Part shown: in pieces, positions 2,670 to 8,970 of the stretch
Layout: every line of letters starts with the position of its first letter
How positions within the stretch are numbered: the first letter of the stretch is position 1
Made by a program: the position numbers and the translations under genes
The notes under the pieces: model-generated
Databases searched by the model: none
Seen by the model: only the letters and a program-made list of their open reading frames with translations
Told to the model about the DNA's origin: nothing
UHGV virus genome: UHGV-0144897
Strand: one strand, 5' to 3'
DNA: 10,204 bases
Source: a virus

Positions 2670-3212
2670 TCACATAACCCCCAGCATCGATGTAACCATT
2701 GTCATCAGCGGCCCCACCTGCTCCGGCATGAGGCGGAACAGCGACGCTATACCCTCGCTTACCTCTTTCAGCTTCTGATGCTCCGGAGCGTCCAGCAGCA
2801 CGGCCTGCTTTGCTTCGGCACACTCTTTCATCGCAGAGGCGATCAGCGACATCGTGTCGTTCTGCGGTGCCAGGCGGTTGCGAAATTCCAGTGGAAGTAC
2901 CGCCATGATTGCGGGCGTCAGCTGGCGCACATTCTCGCGGTACTGCTCTGAGTCGAAGCGGTTATCTAGGAAGCGAAAAAGTTTCTGGCGCGCCCTGCTG
3001 ATGTCTTCCGGGAAGCTGATGGCGGTCCCGCCCTGCTCCCGGTATTCGTTGATGATCAGCGCCGAAACGACGTCCTGATTGTCCAGCGCCGATGACCATG
3101 CACGGACCGCATCGCGGATCTTTTCGTGGCCTGGCGCCGCTTTAGGTTGAGCGCGGTTTATCATTGCTCCCGGGTGTATTCCGGTATTGTGTTGATACGC
3201 AAGTGAATGCAT
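2670..3212 (-). CDS. cII-slot regulatory protein (180 aa), family uncertain (possibly the larger CII-like/YdaT-like type)
   Basis: ORF-track 2670..3212. ATG 3212..3210 with AAGGGA RBS, 30 nt downstream of the Cro-like stop. The position between cro-like and O-like genes matches lambda cII, but the protein is about twice as long and not recognisably lambda CII. Confidence 0.6.
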   Translation of the reverse strand: MHSLAYQHNTGIHPGAMINRAQPKAAPGHEKIRDAVRAWSSALDNQDVVSALIINEYREQGGTAISFPEDISRARQKLFRFLDNRFDSEQYRENVRQLTPAIMAVLPLEFRNRLAPQNDTMSLIASAMKECAEAKQAVLLDAPEHQKLKEVSEGIASLFRLMPEQVGPLMTMVTSMLGVM

Positions 3213-3241: not shown

Positions 3242-3469
3242 TTAAGCGGCTTTTGGTTTACTGATTTCAAGAATCTGGTTTTCGGTAAACTGACCACCAG
3301 ATGCAGCTGCGATTTTGGACGCATAGCCTGTTTCGCCTGTGTAGTCGGTGCGCGGTAGGCAACCGCTATTAATCCACTTGTAAATAGCGCGGGGAGTGCG
3401 CCCGCAAGCCTTCGCCACCACCGGTACACGGATTTGTTTGATGATGTCGCCAAGGTTTTTAGGTTGCAT
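3242..3469 (-). CDS. Cro-like / YdaS-like HTH DNA-binding protein (75 aa)
   Basis: ORF-track 3242..3469. ATG 3469..3467 with GAGGG RBS. HTH-like VVAKACGRTPRAIYKWINSG. Divergent from the cI-like repressor across an operator-rich region. Confidence 0.75.
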   Translation of the reverse strand: MQPKNLGDIIKQIRVPVVAKACGRTPRAIYKWINSGCLPRTDYTGETGYASKIAAASGGQFTENQILEISKPKAA

Positions 3470-3485: not shown

Positions 3486-3559
3486 TTGAACTGTAAGTAC
3501 ATATTATGTCGGAACTGATAGTTCACGCAAGTGATATTATGATTGAACCTATGGTTCAA
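3486..3559. promoter_or_regulatory. OR-like control region: three TGAAC/GTTCA-type operator dyads with divergent PR-like and PRM-like promoters
   Basis: Site A TTGAACTGTAAGTACAT (3486..3502); site B GAACT-GAT-AGTTC (3512..3524); site C TTGAACC-TAT-GGTTCAA (3543..3559). Minus-strand promoter: -35 TTGCGT (3530..3525), 16-bp spacer containing site B, -10 CATAAT (3508..3503). Plus-strand candidate: -35 CTGATA (3515..3520), -10 TATGAT (3538..3543). Site A recurs near-identically in the pL-like region. Confidence 0.45.
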
Positions 3560-4261
3560 GAAGAAAAAGCGCGTACAGAGTTTTCCCAACGGCTAGCGCT
3601 GGCCTGTGATAAAGCTGGTTTACCTGCTCATGGTCGTCAGGCTGAAATTGCAAAGCGAATGAAGCTAACACCAAAAGCAGTAAGCAAGTGGTTCAATGGG
3701 GAGGCTATTCCAAGACGTGGCAAGCTGCAGGAACTGGCGGCTATAATTGGCACATCCTCGTCTTACCTATTAGGCGATAGTGCAGCAGATGGCATATCTG
3801 AAGGGCATATGGCAATGAGGGACGATTCTTTCCGTGTAGACGTTTTTGATATTCAAGCTAGCGCTGGGCAAGGAATTCTTGTGCGAGATGAGTTCATTGA
3901 AACAATCAGATCCATAGAGTATTCAACCGAAGAGGCTCGCGCCGTATTTGGTGGGCGCCCAGCTGACCACATAAAAATGATTGCCGTGAATGGCGATTCT
4001 ATGTCTGGCACGTTCGAGCCGAGAGACCAGATCTTCGTCGACGTGAGCATCGACTGCTTTGACGGTGACGGCATATACATTTTCGTTCTGGACAATGATC
4101 TCTACATAAAGCGCCTTCAAAAGCAGCACAAAAAATTAGCTGTGATTTCAGACAACAAAAAATATGAGACCTGGTATATCGAGGATGGTGATTTTTCATC
4201 TCTTCGGATCTGCGCGAAGGTCTTGGTAAGCCAATCTAGAGCATATAGATTTCATAGCTGA
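3506..4261 (+). CDS. cI-like prophage repressor (N-terminal HTH, C-terminal S24/LexA-type autopeptidase)
   Basis: ORF-track 251 aa. HTH GRQAEIAKRMKLTPKAVSKWFNGEAIP resembles the lambda cI recognition region. S24 motifs AVNGDSMSG (Ser) and LYIKRL (Lys). No SD before any candidate ATG (3506, 3539, 3551); start may be leaderless at 3551, inside dyad C. Confidence 0.9.
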   Translation: MSELIVHASDIMIEPMVQEEKARTEFSQRLALACDKAGLPAHGRQAEIAKRMKLTPKAVSKWFNGEAIPRRGKLQELAAIIGTSSSYLLGDSAADGISEGHMAMRDDSFRVDVFDIQASAGQGILVRDEFIETIRSIEYSTEEARAVFGGRPADHIKMIAVNGDSMSGTFEPRDQIFVDVSIDCFDGDGIYIFVLDNDLYIKRLQKQHKKLAVISDNKKYETWYIEDGDFSSLRICAKVLVSQSRAYRFHS

Positions 4262-4923: not shown

Positions 4924-5012
4924 AAAGTTCATAAAGTTAATCGTATATGAACTTTCCATTCACAAACAATGTACTTTTGGTACTTTACATGAATGAACTA
5001 TTGGTACATTAT
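4924..5012 (+). promoter_or_regulatory. pL/OL-like region: operator-like dyads and candidate leftward early promoter
   Basis: Inverted repeat AAAGTTCATA (4924..4933) / TATGAACTTT (4946..4955). TGAACT-N4-GTACAT at 4994..5009 matches OR site A (3487..3502). Candidate -35 TTTACA (4984..4989) and -10 CATTAT (5007..5012), 17-bp spacer. GTAC-containing repeats TTGGTAC at 4977 and 5001. Confidence 0.35.
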
Positions 5013-5230
5013 CAATCCATCGAAACGAAACATCGACAGCTGAGCGAAGTTAGCCAGCGGCGGAGTGGAGTTAGATGACCGCTTAGAGCCGCCACTTGAA
5101 TTTCAGCAGGTGACGGGGAGCGCGAAGGGTGAAGCGGACGTGAGAGCGTTGGCGTGACCAGCTGGAACTAAAGGTTTACCAGCAGCTCTTTGCGAGGGGC
5201 TGACGGTAAACAAACAGAGAGGTGGAAATC

Positions 5231-5419
5231 ATGCTTGGGTGTGAAAAGTGCGACCACGGATTCGTGTTCACCAGATGCTGTTCTGGTCTTGCTGAAATGT
5301 GTGGATGCGGCGGAATGCCGGTTCAGGCCACTAATTGCAAGAACTGCAATCCAGAGAATAAAGAGCCGGATGACGCGGAGACAGAATCGCTTCTCCAGTA
5401 TGTCGAATGGGTCGATTGA
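5231..5419 (+). CDS. small Cys-rich protein (62 aa), putative zinc-binding; first gene of early-left operon
   Basis: Part of ORF-track 5222..5419 (GTG start). ATG 5231 has AGAGAGG 8 nt upstream. MLGCEKCDHGFVFTRCCSGLAEMCGCGGMPVQATNCKNCNPENKEPDDAETESLLQYVEWVD has 9 Cys in CxxC/CC/CxC arrangements and an acidic C-terminus. Confidence 0.6.
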   Translation: MLGCEKCDHGFVFTRCCSGLAEMCGCGGMPVQATNCKNCNPENKEPDDAETESLLQYVEWVD

Positions 5420-5431
5420 TCAGCATTTCTC

Positions 5432-5448
5432 CCGCATCAGCGGGTAAC
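5432..5448 (+). repeat. 17-nt intergenic hairpin element CCGCATCAGCGGGTAAC, copy 1
   Basis: Stem CCCGC (5431..5435) / GCGGG (5440..5444), loop ATCA. Ends exactly 16 nt before the ATG at 5465. Identical 17-mer at 5654..5670. Confidence 0.6.
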
Positions 5449-5464
5449 TAAGTGGAGAGTACGT

Positions 5465-5653
5465 ATGCACAAGTGTCAATTCTGTGGGTACTTTCTGGCA
5501 TCTGAAGAGATGCAGAGAATATCTGTAAACATGGTTGGCAGGCCTTACAACATCTGCATTCCATGCTCAGAAAAGTACAAAAAGAAAGGCCTGTGGGATT
5601 CGGCAAAAAACGATATCGACTGGAAAGCACTTCCATGCGTCGATGAGACATAA
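5465..5653 (+). CDS. small zinc-ribbon-like protein (62 aa)
   Basis: ORF-track 5465..5653. GGAGAG RBS. CQFCG...CIPC (two CxxC pairs) plus one further Cys. Confidence 0.6.
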   Translation: MHKCQFCGYFLASEEMQRISVNMVGRPYNICIPCSEKYKKKGLWDSAKNDIDWKALPCVDET

Positions 5654-5670
5654 CCGCATCAGCGGGTAAC
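5654..5670 (+). repeat. 17-nt intergenic hairpin element CCGCATCAGCGGGTAAC, copy 2
   Basis: Begins right after the TAA stop (5651..5653). Ends exactly 16 nt before the ATG at 5687. Identical to copy 1 at 5432..5448. Confidence 0.6.
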
Positions 5671-5686
5671 GACAGAGGAAAATTTC

Positions 5687-5905
5687 ATGTCTTACATCAC
5701 CGAAAACATCCACCTACTTTCAAACTTCAACGCTGATCCGGCAACTATCGCGAATATGAAATCGCTGGTATTGCCCTGGGCAAAGAAGCGCTTGAGTGAG
5801 TATCAAGAGCTATACGCATTGTGCCCTGAAGCGATATTCAGCGACGAAGTTGAAACGCTAAAAGCTGGCATCGCAGTTTGCGAACAAAGATTACAAGCCG
5901 CCTAA
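5687..5905 (+). CDS. hypothetical protein (72 aa)
   Basis: ORF-track 5687..5905. AGAGGAA RBS. The stop codon lies in the loop of the downstream terminator hairpin. Confidence 0.6.
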   Translation: MSYITENIHLLSNFNADPATIANMKSLVLPWAKKRLSEYQELYALCPEAIFSDEVETLKAGIAVCEQRLQAA

Positions 5906-5921
5906 CCAGCGGCTTTTTTAT
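5895..5921 (+). terminator. rho-independent terminator inside the early-left operon
   Basis: Stem AAGCCGC (5895..5901) / GCGGCTT (5909..5915), 7-nt loop containing the TAA stop of the 72-aa gene, followed by TTTTAT. Confidence 0.55.
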
Positions 5922-5947
5922 CGGCCACATAAAACAGGAGGATCGGT

Positions 5948-6586
5948 ATGGGCTCGGCAGCTACCGACATCATTCTTGAGAGCAAGAGAAGCCGAAAGAA
6001 AAATAAGGGGCCTGTCCACGGAGTTGGGATTATTGATGTTCCATTCAGTGTGCGCGGAACAGTAGATGGGAAAAAGATATACCACCGAGCCTTTAAGGTT
6101 TGGAACAGCATTTTGCAGCGATGCTATTACCCACCTATTCAAGCCAAGTATCCATCATACATAGGCTGCTCTGTTTCCCCTGAATGGCTGCTCTTCTCTG
6201 GTTTCCTTAAGTGGTGGAAAGCGAATTTTCATGAGGGCTGGGAAATCGATAAAGACCTCCTATTTCCTGGCAACAAGATCTACTCACCAGATAAATGCCT
6301 TTTCGTTCCATGCGATCTGAATAGTTTTGTAATCAGCCGAGAAGCAAAGCGCGGACCTTCTCCTATCGGAAGTACGTTTGATGCTCGTTATGGCGTTTAT
6401 AGGACAACTATCAGTCTTGGGAAAGGCCAAAAGCATTACTTGGGGTCGTTCGTTTGTCCAGACGAGGCATACACCGCCTGGCTCAGTGCAAAGTTGAAGC
6501 TTGCTGAGCGATTCAAACCAATCTGCGACGAGATACACCCTCAACTTTACGACAGCCTACTCACGAAAATTCGCTCGATTAAATGA
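5948..6586 (+). CDS. free-standing endonuclease-like protein with a C-terminal AP2-type DNA-binding domain (HNH/homing-endonuclease-associated type), 212 aa
   Basis: ORF-track 5948..6586. AGGAGG RBS 6 nt upstream. C-terminus ARYGVYRTTISLGKGQKHYLGSFVCPDEAYTAWLSAKLKLAE fits the AP2 signature (YxGV...GK...LGxF...EA..A). N-terminal W-x6-RC...Y-x-Y-x-G...W-x-x-F...F pattern recalls phage HNH-associated proteins. Family is recognition only. Confidence 0.75.
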   Translation: MGSAATDIILESKRSRKKNKGPVHGVGIIDVPFSVRGTVDGKKIYHRAFKVWNSILQRCYYPPIQAKYPSYIGCSVSPEWLLFSGFLKWWKANFHEGWEIDKDLLFPGNKIYSPDKCLFVPCDLNSFVISREAKRGPSPIGSTFDARYGVYRTTISLGKGQKHYLGSFVCPDEAYTAWLSAKLKLAERFKPICDEIHPQLYDSLLTKIRSIK

Positions 6587-6721
6587 ATTGCTAAACCGAC
6601 ACATGTGGTCGGCTTCGTTATGACAACTGGCGGCCATCCACCGCCCATTGAAACACTGAATAAATGCGTTGAAGTCTTGTATTAACCGTTCCGTTCGCCG
6701 CGATAAGGCCAAGAGGAAATC

Positions 6722-7512: not shown

Positions 7513-7644
7513 CTCAGCAAACCGGATTGCTGATGGTTGCCATACTCTGCCTGCTGTATGACCTGCAGCCGGCAGACCTCGAATCACTGGCCCACCAGCT
7601 TGCAGAATTTGACGCAGTTAACGACCACATTACGGAGATTAAGC

Positions 7645-8301
7645 ATGTTGAGAGTTATTGATACCGAAACTACCAGCCTGGAAGGCAGTGTGCTGGAGAT
7701 TGCCAGCGTTGATATCGTCGACGGCGTTATTTGTAATCCCATGAGCGACTTTGTGAAGCCCACTGAAGCGATTAGCTTCGAGGCTATGGCTATCCACCAT
7801 ATCACTGAAGATATGGTCGCTGACGCCCCGCTGATTGGTGAGGTTATCGGTCGTTACCTTGGCGCGCAGGCTTACGTCGCTCACAACGCGAAGTTCGATA
7901 AATCGAAGCTACCACAAATCGACGCGCCGTGGATCTGCACCGCTAAGCTGGCCCGTGCTCTTCTCCCGGATCACCCAAGCCACAGTAACCAGTACCTGCG
8001 TTACAGCCTGGGCCTGAAACCTGAACTTCCGGAAGGCCTGTATGCGCACCGCGCGCTATATGACTGCTACGTCACTGCTGAATTGCTTCTGTACATGGGA
8101 CGCCTGGCGAAATGGACGTTTGGCGAAATGCGCGCCATTTCAAACAGCCCGTCACTGATTAAGGCGATCCGGTTCGGCAAGCACAAGGGCCTGACGTTTG
8201 AAGAAATTGCGAAGGTCGACCCTGGCTATCTCCGTTGGTTGTCCAGCAACAGCGACGACGAAGACATTCTCTTCACCATCAAACACTGGCTTAAGGGGTG
8301 A
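7645..8301 (+). CDS. DnaQ-family DEDDh 3'-5' exonuclease, ExoX-like (218 aa)
   Basis: ORF-track 7537..8301 begins with TTG. Preferred start is ATG 7645 with GGAGA RBS, so the protein starts at the Exo I motif MLRVIDTETT. Also YVAHNAKFD, HRALYDCYVTAELL and C-terminal FGKHKGLTFEEIAKVDPGYLRWL, matching my recollection of E. coli ExoX. Confidence 0.9.
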   Translation: MLRVIDTETTSLEGSVLEIASVDIVDGVICNPMSDFVKPTEAISFEAMAIHHITEDMVADAPLIGEVIGRYLGAQAYVAHNAKFDKSKLPQIDAPWICTAKLARALLPDHPSHSNQYLRYSLGLKPELPEGLYAHRALYDCYVTAELLLYMGRLAKWTFGEMRAISNSPSLIKAIRFGKHKGLTFEEIAKVDPGYLRWLSSNSDDEDILFTIKHWLKG

Positions 8302-8304
8302 TTT

Positions 8305-8970
8305 ATGGCGGTGATGACTCTCATCCTTGCCGACTCCGGGTATGGCAAGACGTACAGCATCCGCAACGTTAACCCGGAAAATGCCATTCTCGCTCGCTGT
8401 ATTCGTAAGGCCCTTCCGTTCCGTAATACCGGCTGGAAACTCCACGGTAAACGCCTGCCGGATAACTCAATCCAGCGCGGGAACGTGGTTGATATCCGCA
8501 ATGGCCGTCATCTTCTTGACGTGATCCGTAACGCTGCGATTAGTGGTCGAAAGATTCTGATTATCGATGATTTTCAGGCCGTCATGCAGCACGAGAACAT
8601 GGACCGGGCCTACGAGACTGGCTACACCAAGTTTACTGAAATGGCGGAGCACGCCTGGCGCATCATCGAAGCTGCAACCCAGCTTCCTGACGACTTCCGC
8701 GTTTACTTCCTCGCACACACCGAAGAGAGCGAAGGAAAAATCAGAATGAAGACAGTCGGCAAGATGCTTAACGAAAAGCTCACTCCTGAAGGCTACTTCC
8801 CTATCGTTCTGCGCATCATCAAGCGCGACGGCAAACACCTTTTCCTGTTGAAGGGCGACGACAATGACACCGTGAAATGTCCTCCTGACCTGTTCGGTCC
8901 AGAAGTGACTGACATGGATAACGACCTAGCGGCGTTCGACAACGCAATTTCTGAATTTACTGACTTATAA
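8305..8970 (+). CDS. Sak4-like (RecA-core, AAA_24-type) ATPase, putative phage recombination/annealing protein (221 aa)
   Basis: ORF-track 8305..8970. AAGGGG RBS. N-terminal Walker A LILADSGYGKTYS; ILIIDDFQ Walker B-like. Size and position between an exonuclease and an SSB-like gene fit phage Sak4-type proteins. Confidence 0.75.
   Translation: MAVMTLILADSGYGKTYSIRNVNPENAILARCIRKALPFRNTGWKLHGKRLPDNSIQRGNVVDIRNGRHLLDVIRNAAISGRKILIIDDFQAVMQHENMDRAYETGYTKFTEMAEHAWRIIEAATQLPDDFRVYFLAHTEESEGKIRMKTVGKMLNEKLTPEGYFPIVLRIIKRDGKHLFLLKGDDNDTVKCPPDLFGPEVTDMDNDLAAFDNAISEFTDL

Follow-up and report, generated by a model that had tools for sequence, protein, structure and literature searches.

A repeated hairpin sequence as the probable core of an N-leader-derived junction and exchange point in phi80-type lambdoid phages

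The repeated 17-mer in the early-left operon

The stretch of DNA analyzed here, referred to as the window, comprises 10,204 nucleotides (nt) of the virus genome UHGV-0144897 and is the immunity and early-left region of a lambdoid prophage. The element under study is a 17-mer, CCGCATCAGCGGGTAAC, of which two exact copies were found on the plus strand, forming a direct repeat of exactly 17 nt with the copies 222 nt apart. No further copy was found in the window on either strand when up to three mismatches were allowed. The number of matches expected by chance was 0.03 and two copies occurred in none of 200 shuffled sequences; chance is ruled out for the pair. Each copy stops 16 nt short of an ATG, at 5465 for an open reading frame (ORF) of 62 amino acids (aa) and at 5687 for one of 72 aa. 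The putative early-left promoter pL, the conserved leader and the flanking genes (Table 1) place both copies inside the pL operon, between its first, second and third small ORFs. The positions of the copies, their GC stem with an ATCA loop and their distance from the two start codons had been noted in a preliminary description of this DNA, and all were confirmed by our scan and by folding.

Copy 1 folds into a stem of 5 base pairs (bp), CCCGC/GCGGG, with the loop AUCA; C5431, the base directly ahead of the 17-mer, is part of this stem, and the folding energy was -9.0 kcal/mol (z = -3.8). At copy 2 an A replaces the C of position 5431 and the stem is therefore one pair shorter (4 bp, -6.6 kcal/mol, z = -2.4). 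The repeat is limited to the 17-mer itself; ahead of it stands GCATTTCTC at copy 1 and, at copy 2, the stop codon of the 62-aa gene. The hairpin does not have the form of an intrinsic terminator, with UAAC and no run of U behind it, and the only terminator called in the window was the hairpin at 5895-5915, on both strands. The promoter scan of the window gave no promoter-like site at either copy.

The preliminary description had taken the identity of the copies and their fixed register to the start codons together as arguments against chance. The non-random nature of the pair stands, while the register carries less weight than was given to it. The two spacers between 17-mer and ATG are unlike in sequence (TAAGTGGAGAGTACGT versus GACAGAGGAAAATTTC), and the distance from the junction to the first ATG varied over 129 distinct contexts in related phages, being 16 nt in 98 of them, 30 nt in 15, 13 nt in 7 and 15 nt in 4. 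The equal spacing in the window thus reflects ordinary Shine-Dalgarno geometry and a shared ribosome-binding module, and not a measured distance.

Several known elements were compared with the hairpin and set aside. The segment GCGGGUAACG (5440-5449 and 5662-5671) is perfectly complementary to nt 483-492 of the E. coli 16S rRNA, and this pairing was treated as chance, since 6.4% of shuffled junctions reach 10 nt. Integron attC sites are imperfect inverted repeats of 57-141 bp with an adjacent integrase; the hairpin is only 13 nt long and no integrase is present among the neighboring genes. The repetitive extragenic palindromic (REP) and bacterial interspersed mosaic elements (BIME) of the host occur in hundreds of copies per chromosome, and the 17-mer in one or two places per E. 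coli genome. Likenesses to sites for integration host factor (IHF), to Chi, to REP and to the MS2 operator were judged by eye and dropped for poor fit or wrong biology.

The junction in related phages and its homology to the lambda N leader

A search for the 17-mer in related prophages, which had been proposed in the preliminary description together with a check of its position relative to start codons, found it widely. The exact 17-mer is present in at least 120 IMG/VR contigs, where it is almost always single and lies within a larger conserved junction; overall, it was found at more than 150 loci in prophages and phages of Enterobacteriaceae. The alignment of the IMG/VR loci showed that the conserved junction is about 45 nt long and consists of AAAGCATTTCTC, CCGCATCAGCGGGTAAC, GACAGAGGGTAAGGCG and ATG, with highly diverse sequences on both flanks. 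Read by its parts, it is laid out as (A)AAGCATTTCTC, hairpin, TAAC, GACAGAGGGTAAGGCG and ATG, and the conserved unit grows to about 60 nt when both strands of the basal stem described below are counted. The 17 nt noticed at the outset are therefore a real element and also only a part of the conserved one. In phi80 the exact 17-mer junction lies immediately upstream of gene N. The junction was also found in HK225, in HK639 (loop AUCU), in the Enterobacter phages ENT1, BHUENT3, BHUENT6 and CobraSix, and in Klebsiella phage KO-TP1. It was not annotated in any phage record examined, and a text search of the available literature with the junction and leader motifs matched nothing but the CRISPR repeat discussed below. 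Among 5426 complete E. coli genomes, 115 contain the 17-mer, many of them phi80-derived laboratory strains; DH5alpha and DH10B carry the junction. A flank-anchored pattern across the hairpin retrieved 10 contigs from a collection with one genome per species (Citrobacter, Enterobacter, Scandinavium and Trabulsiella). The window differs from phi80, KO-TP1 and most IMG/VR loci in one respect: there the junction lies between pL with its nut (or put) site and the first ORF of the operon, and here the copies stand after the first and the second ORF.

In most loci the junction forms the 3' end of a structured leader with a long stem of 20-25 bp, here called P1. The base of P1 is a constant 12-bp helix (GGAAUGUUUUGG/CCAAAGCAUUUC), followed by a bulge of one or two purines and a distal helix of 6-10 bp, and its base is separated from the small hairpin by 0-2 nt. 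At least eight fully complementary versions of the distal helix were found, for example GGUGUGGUG/CACCACACC, GCUGGC/GCCAGC, GAUUGGAUG/CAUCCAAUC and GGUGAGUU/AACUCACC, which amounts to clear covariation in P1. The interior of P1 is extremely variable and 108-222 nt long. Leaders were also collected by the 5' strand of P1, a choice that carries no bias toward the hairpin. In this sample of 86 distinct leaders, the hairpin stood directly behind P1 in 71; the 17-mer was exact in 57 and the hairpin was a variant in 14 (four loop and two stem variants, and changes of the tail). The loop variants seen were AUCU, AUCG, GUCA and AUUA. Neither copy in the window has P1: its 5' strand GGAATGTTWTGGG was not found there, and AGCATTTCTC, in front of copy 1, stands without its 5' partner.

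P1 has a recognizable counterpart in phage lambda. The lambda N leader reads GGCUUUGGGGUGUGUG...CACACACC-A-CCAAAGC and then UAAC-UGACAGGAG...AUG (with UGACAGGAGAAUCCAG-AUG at gene N), and leaders of the phi80 type read GGAAUGUUUUGGGGUGUGG/CCACACC-A-CCAAAGCAUUUC ... UAAC-GACAGAGG. When the two are aligned, the phi80 type has a 20-nt insertion, AUUUCUCCCGCAUCAGCGGG, between CCAAAGC and UAAC, and this insertion contains the hairpin. The lambda-type long stem itself, GGGGUGUGUG/CACACACC-A-CCAAAGC, occurs in relatives with covariation; the window keeps AGCATTTCTC only. As lambda has the same architecture and a recognizably related sequence, P1 is regarded as the homologue of the lambda N-leader stem, and P1 and the UAAC-GACAG-AG region as a whole are, by sequence, homologous to the lambda N leader. 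According to this alignment, UAAC-GACAGAGG is an N-type ribosome-binding region and the hairpin is a lineage-specific addition between it and P1. In the window, the counterpart of UAACUGACAGGAG of lambda N is made up of the UAAC in the hairpin tail and GACAGAGGAAAATTTC.

Since the small hairpin lies in the pL leader and, in phi80, beside gene N, it could be taken for a nut or boxB-type site at which an N-like antiterminator acts. The preliminary description had already set this reading aside, in part because of the 4-nt loop and in part because of the copy number. The argument from loop size has to be given up, as the annotated nutL core of phi80 also has a loop of 4 nt. The conclusion holds on other grounds: phi80 and KO-TP1 have a separate boxA and hairpin about 250 nt upstream, neither phi80 nor the window has a copy of the junction on its pR side, no boxA is found at the proper distance (GCATTTCTC is not a boxA), and the junction is present in put-type phages that lack N. 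The nut reading is thereby effectively refuted.

The interior of P1 contained further structured segments. A tRNA-like cloverleaf is present there in some phages; its T-arm is canonical, it has CCA and a discriminator purine, and it was called as tRNA-Ile(gat) or tRNA-Ser(tga) by ARAGORN. The largest class of interiors contains a 47-nt copy of helix 11 of the 16S rRNA (Rfam small-subunit (SSU) positions 237-283, E = 3e-7), in which 35 of 40 nt are identical to nt 243-282 of the E. coli 16S rRNA and paired changes occur in the helix. Examples of P1 interiors are found, under our locus numbers, in L002 (5001-5047), L068 (11356-11426), L027 (8159-8228, minus strand), L043 (6974-7053, minus strand), L056, L058 and phi80 (L124, 1733-1880). 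These segments may be processing signals, decoys or mobile inserts. The structured leader is not the RNase P substrate of phi80 known as M3 RNA, which the phi80 record places at 36229-36288 as the oop homologue.

Exchange of genes at the junction

The ORFs that follow the junction have little in common. Among 129 instances they fall into 49 unrelated families (unrelated at a BLASTP E-value of 1e-5) of 42-222 aa, mostly without a Pfam match; those with an identity include N of phi80, an Nmad5 protein and a DUF2528 protein. When the two flanks of 152 junctions were classified, 29 upstream and 51 downstream classes were found in 107 combinations. Each of 25 downstream classes was paired with at least two upstream classes, and 47 complete four-gamete quartets were present. 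On the right-hand side, a conserved terminator, GCCGCCTAACCAGCGGCTTTTT, was found 136-646 nt past the junction in 41 of 135 loci. The ORFs of 11 of the 49 unrelated families, the 72-aa gene of the window among them, end in Ala-Ala-stop, where about 0.4 families would be expected; this excess arises because the 5' arm of the terminator (GCC GCC TAA) supplies the last two codons and the stop. It is speculated that early proteins ending in Ala-Ala, like the end of the ssrA tag, might be substrates of ClpXP.

Pairwise comparison of the window with 13 relatives gave a mosaic map of the same region. The block at 5016-5064 is common to all 13 relatives. The next block, at 5171-5448, holds the first ORF and copy 1, is shared with three loci (L048, L052 and L120) and stops exactly at the end of copy 1. 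The block at 5422-5678, with copy 1, the 62-aa gene and copy 2, is 99.2-99.6% identical to HK225, L002, L096, L110, L138 and L142 and reaches 8 nt beyond copy 2, and the block at 5654-5919, with copy 2, the 72-aa gene and the terminator, is common to L016 and L075 and begins exactly at copy 2. The 17-mer thus stands between unrelated flanks in more than 150 loci, blocks of homology end at both of its copies in the window, and the flanking alleles occur in all combinations, as is expected of a mosaic boundary. Of the functions that the preliminary description had offered for the hairpin, that of a sequence at a module junction is the one that these results strongly uphold. The compared loci show the junction to be the left border of a hypervariable slot and, as read from the alignments, recombination there has repeatedly joined different partners.

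The second copy in the window is accounted for by the 62-aa cysteine-rich gene. Each of its 11 close homologues (identity of 92% or more) has a copy of the 17-mer on either side, and the cassette occurs in at least five upstream and at least six downstream contexts, one of which is between a phi80-type leader and phi80 N. These contexts show that the gene, with its own ribosome-binding region, travels as a unit between two 17-mers; the window has two copies because its slot holds three small genes, the middle one of which moves with the bracketing 17-mers. Other genes inserted ahead of junctions retain unequal left flanks (AAAGCATTTCTC, AAGCATTTCTC, AGCATTTCTC or TC), so that the joints are not site-specific.

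Distant homologues of the 62-aa gene were seen in other phage groups (L149, L164 and L165). They have no hairpin and are flanked by a repeated ribosome-binding sequence of their own, CACGTTAT.A.GGGGT.A.A.A-ATG or AATAACGGAGGGAGT-ATG. Repeats of an intergenic linker on both sides of small early genes thus seem to be general, and the hairpin is specific to the phi80 group. The 62-aa protein was also considered as the binding partner of the hairpin and rejected, as its gene is missing from most junctions and the distant homologues occur without a hairpin.

The diversity of the downstream genes bears directly on a translational operator, another function that had been put forward for the hairpin, in which an RNA-binding protein of the phage or host would control the gene 16 nt downstream. 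Such a role would suit the strong conservation of loop, tail and the rest in most copies and the closeness of the ribosome-binding site. However, the hairpin is followed by 49 unrelated gene families, no gene co-occurs with it consistently, the 62-aa gene is absent from most loci, the loop varies, and directly after terminators this ribosome-binding region works with no hairpin present. The operator is therefore improbable.

We propose that in phi80-type lambdoid phages the 17-mer forms the core of a junction that derives from the N leader and serves as a point of exchange, and assign this reading a probability of roughly 0.7. As we picture it, the pL leader RNA is linked to the first ORF or ORFs of the early-left operon by a conserved untranslated adaptor, with the 17-mer as its near-invariant core. 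The full adaptor would comprise the 3' strand of P1 (...RCCAAAGCAUUUC), the hairpin CCCGC-AUCA-GCGGG, the spacer UAAC and the ribosome-binding region GACAGAGGGUAAGGCG-AUG. At the DNA level, its 25-55 bp of identity would serve as a patch for homologous exchange, of sufficient length for the phage-encoded single-strand-annealing recombinases that could run it: the window encodes a Sak4-like protein and an exonuclease, and the relatives have RecT or RecE. The 17-nt duplication probably arose in a single event, in which the cassette was joined illegitimately by its 3' end to a second adaptor; the bracketed cassette would then have spread by homologous exchange.

The features of the window that surround the junctions are listed in Table 1. 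The phi80 record annotates the -10 element and the operators of pL, and the phi80 transcript starts with the same 49-nt segment as the leader of the window. This segment, ATCCATCGAAACGAAACATCGACAGCTGAGCGAAGTTAGCCAGCGGCGG, is kept regardless of the sequence behind it, and it is near-identical in phages with nut sites (phi80 and KO-TP1) and in phages with put-like RNAs (HK639 and L004). The middle of the window leader (about 5075-5165) is unlike the stem region of the HK639 putL-like RNA; the two share the 5' 49 nt and about 57 nt at the 3' end only, and an intact antiterminator RNA is not established for the window by this comparison. No N-like gene was found after the junctions of the window. 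Farther downstream, an ORF of 212 aa (5948-6586) matches the C-terminal part of PHROG families of HNH endonucleases (phrog_953, E = 4e-72) and has no Pfam match. It lies in a 688-nt segment (5922-6609), between the tL1A-like terminator and a conserved block at 6610-6700, that was not found in any of the 13 relatives. The ORF may encode a free-standing homing endonuclease beside the exchange hotspot.

Table 1. Features of the immunity and early-left region of the window. P1, long leader stem of related phages.
Feature	Position	Strand	Basis or remark
cII/YdaT-like gene	2670-3212	-	Pfam/PHROG matches
cro-like gene	3242-3469	-	Pfam/PHROG matches
cI-like repressor	3506-4261		Pfam/PHROG matches
Putative pL promoter, TTTACA-17-CATTAT	4984-5012	+	Promoter scan; just upstream of the conserved transcript start
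5' segment of pL leader, ATCCATCGAAACGAAACATCGACAGCTGAGCGAAGTTAGCCAGCGGCGG	5016-5064	+	89.9-100% identity (100% in six) in phi80, HK225, HK639 and 10 further relatives
3' part of leader and ribosome-binding region of first ORF	5168-5231	+	Megablast match to the segment of HK639 annotated as putL-like antiterminator RNA; alignment
First small ORF, cysteine-rich	5232-5419	+	ORF list; no Pfam or PHROG match
AGCATTTCTC	5422-5431	+	Remnant of the 3' strand of P1; same letters as in relatives
17-mer copy 1	5432-5448	+	Hairpin 5431-5444, CCCGC-AUCA-GCGGG, then UAAC
Cassette of 205 nt: ribosome-binding region TAAGTGGAGAGTACGT and 62-aa cysteine-rich gene	5449-5653	+	Gene at 5465-5653, phrog_19863
17-mer copy 2	5654-5670	+	4-bp hairpin 5654-5666, then UAAC; adjoins TAA stop of 62-aa gene
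Ribosome-binding region GACAGAGGAAAATTTC	5671-5686	+	Variant of consensus GACAGAGGGTAAGGCG; comparison with junctions of relatives and with lambda
72-aa ORF ending QRLQAA*	5687-5905	+	Last two codons and stop (GCC GCC TAA) are the 5' arm of the terminator
Intrinsic terminator AAGCCGCCTAACCAGCGGCTTTTTT	5895-5921	+	Terminator scan; 96% identity to the stretch annotated as tL1A in phi80; right border of the variable slot
Exonuclease	7537-8301	+	Pfam/PHROG matches
Sak4-like annealing protein	8305-8970	+	Pfam/PHROG matches

Possible roles in the RNA, comparison with known systems and significance

At the RNA level, the hairpin may act as a structural spacer that holds the ribosome-binding site clear of the variable RNA upstream. 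After a cut in the leader stem or in the AU-rich GCAUUUCUC, it would come to lie near the 5' end of the downstream message (or between cistrons); if lambda N is a guide, RNase III would make the cut, and RNase E or RNase P are further candidates. This role as spacer or processed 5' hairpin is put forward tentatively, at somewhat less than even odds.

A number of observations weigh against the proposed reading or against parts of it. The hairpin is absent from 15 of the 86 P1 leaders, which diverge within or right after CATTTC and two of which precede lambda-like and P22-like N genes; it is thus dispensable for leader function in general. The small hairpin varied too little for a test of covariation and no compensatory changes were found, so that its structure is backed by thermodynamics and conservation only. 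All six stem substitutions seen (ACGC, CCAC plus GCGGT, GCGGA and both copies of locus L147) weaken the stem. No Rfam family for the hairpin or the leader was found in a scan of the window and 13 related loci, the one relevant match being the 16S fragment within a single leader class. Both copies in the window lack P1, and a role in stem processing cannot apply there unchanged. The near-total identity of the 17-mer could stem from recent recombinational spread and not from selection on the hairpin. Finally, new ORFs are tightly bounded by the ATG and by the AA-stop, a precision that exchange at the junction leaves unexplained.

The L147 locus (IMGVR_UViG_3300006946_000268) was the sole locus seen with two damaged copies; both of its cassette hairpins are weakened (CCCGCATCAACGGG and CAGCATCAGCGGG).

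The RNA could also come first and the junction be its by-product. In that case the hairpin and GCAUUUCUC would mark a cut in the pL transcript, by RNase III in the stem or by RNase E or RNase P nearby, and the hairpin would shield either the downstream message at its newly made 5' end or the upstream message at its 3' end. The position of the hairpin in relatives, 0-2 nt behind a stem of 20-25 bp that is homologous to the lambda N-leader stem, is in line with such a signal; the lambda stem is reportedly an RNase III site, and its processing is said to affect the translation of N. The purine bulge and the CCA of P1, which in some phages encloses a tRNA-like cloverleaf, would suit RNase P. RNase E prefers RN|WUU, which the GC|AUU of the junction fits, and GCATTTCTC is retained at copy 1 and at most copies that are preceded by an ORF. 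On the other hand, the AU-rich segment is missing at copy 2 and P1 from the whole window, and the leaders without a hairpin and the lack of covariation in the hairpin count here as well. An RNase processing site, which the preliminary description had also offered, is plausible by homology with lambda; processing as the primary function we consider unlikely.

The match from the literature search raised a further explanation, in which the hairpin mimics the repeat of a type I-E CRISPR system and the Cas6e of the host binds or cuts it; it would then be a decoy, or a site of host-dependent processing ahead of early genes that may act in counter-defense. The segment CCCGCATCAGCGGG equals 14 nt of the leader-distal variant repeat GTGTTCCCCGCATCAGCGGGGATAAACCG of an E. 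coli K-12 array (CRISPR-I, L135). With two small gaps the alignment extends to TTC and TAA, and there is no difference in the loop or in the upper five pairs of the stem. Type I-E systems are common in Enterobacteriaceae, the hosts of these phages. The match was found by a text search with a 13-mer over millions of papers, in which about one random match is expected. The canonical repeat has GC and not AT in the loop, its best ungapped match to the junction is 7 nt (18 of 23 columns with gaps), and the loop varies among the phages. The junction has a stem of 5 bp instead of 7, without the basal pair at the Cas6e cut site and without the AUAAACCG handle. As a solitary repeat unit or Racr of type I-E the junction was rejected: SRUFinder requires a score of 41.1 bits or more and an identity of 90% or above that extends over no less than 90% of a known repeat, and the match here has 28.2 bits and 48% coverage (14 of 29 nt). 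Moreover, pL is silent in lysogens, and a decoy would come too late against pre-assembled Cascade. Phage-borne mimics of CRISPR repeats do exist (PMC10651486; bioRxiv 10.1101/2024.10.29.618823). The junction resembles a type I-E repeat or Racr (PMC10651486) in the upper 5 bp of the stem, in the loop of one natural variant and in being solitary, intergenic and phage-borne; it differs in having no basal stem pairs, no 5' handle and no separate small RNA gene with a promoter, and the 13-mer was not found in the Racr supplements. Going by this comparison, mimicry of a CRISPR repeat is very improbable.

A partial likeness to the I-E repeat was seen in two more segments of leaders, GAGTATCCCCGCGCGAG and CGCGCCGGGCGCGGATAAAC (phi80, L124, 1657-1673; L002, about 4965-4985). 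They are regarded as coincidences of GC-rich structured RNA, with scores marginally above those of shuffled sequences (1-11 of 300).

The junction is best described as an N-leader-derived hairpin adaptor that is reused as a cassette junction. With the lambda N leader it shares recognizable homology and the order of pL, nut or put, long stem, ribosome-binding site and first gene. Lambda lacks the small hairpin, whereas the adaptor of the phi80 group serves at least 49 unrelated genes and is reused between cistrons, and the long stem has been lost from the copies in the window. The modular theory of lambdoid phage evolution is said to have postulated linker sequences at module boundaries. Like these, the junction is a short conserved boundary sequence that joins unrelated modules, with breakpoints and free reassortment. 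Linkers are reported to be rare in lambdoid genomes; here, in contrast, one defined sequence is present in more than 150 loci, an RNA function is plausible for it, and a conserved right border matches it. Mobile regulatory cassettes termed promoter-early stem-loops (PeSL) are reported from hyperplastic regions of T4-type phages. They resemble the junction as repeated intergenic stem-loop motifs of about 50 nt that bracket small variable early ORFs and provide homology for shuffling. A PeSL contains an early promoter, while the junction has a ribosome-binding region only and lies inside one antiterminated operon of another phage lineage. Synthetic insulators of 5' untranslated regions (UTRs), such as the RiboJ ribozyme plus hairpin or Csy4 sites between cistrons, seem to follow the same logic of a processing structure, a small hairpin and a standard ribosome-binding site, by which a downstream gene of any kind is expressed independently of what lies upstream; the likeness is by analogy only.

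If the hairpin does insulate the ribosome-binding site or set a processed 5' end, the junction would be a natural counterpart of such engineered UTR insulators. Were the mimicry of a CRISPR repeat true, the earliest phage transcript would carry a Cas6e decoy or a Cas6e-dependent processing site in front of a slot of rapidly exchanged genes, which probably serve in counter-defense. The junction ties the classic lambda N leader to a wider family of leaders, in which a conserved stem encloses a variable interior with tRNA-like and 16S-like inserts. The 17-mer, or the 45-nt junction, provides a sequence handle for a highly variable spot in phi80-type prophages, that of the first gene or genes transcribed from pL. 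The slot holds at least 49 unrelated and mostly uncharacterized families of small proteins, and it is a place where counter-defense and host-takeover genes are expected. The junction is also a clear natural example of the linker sequences postulated by the modular theory of phage evolution.

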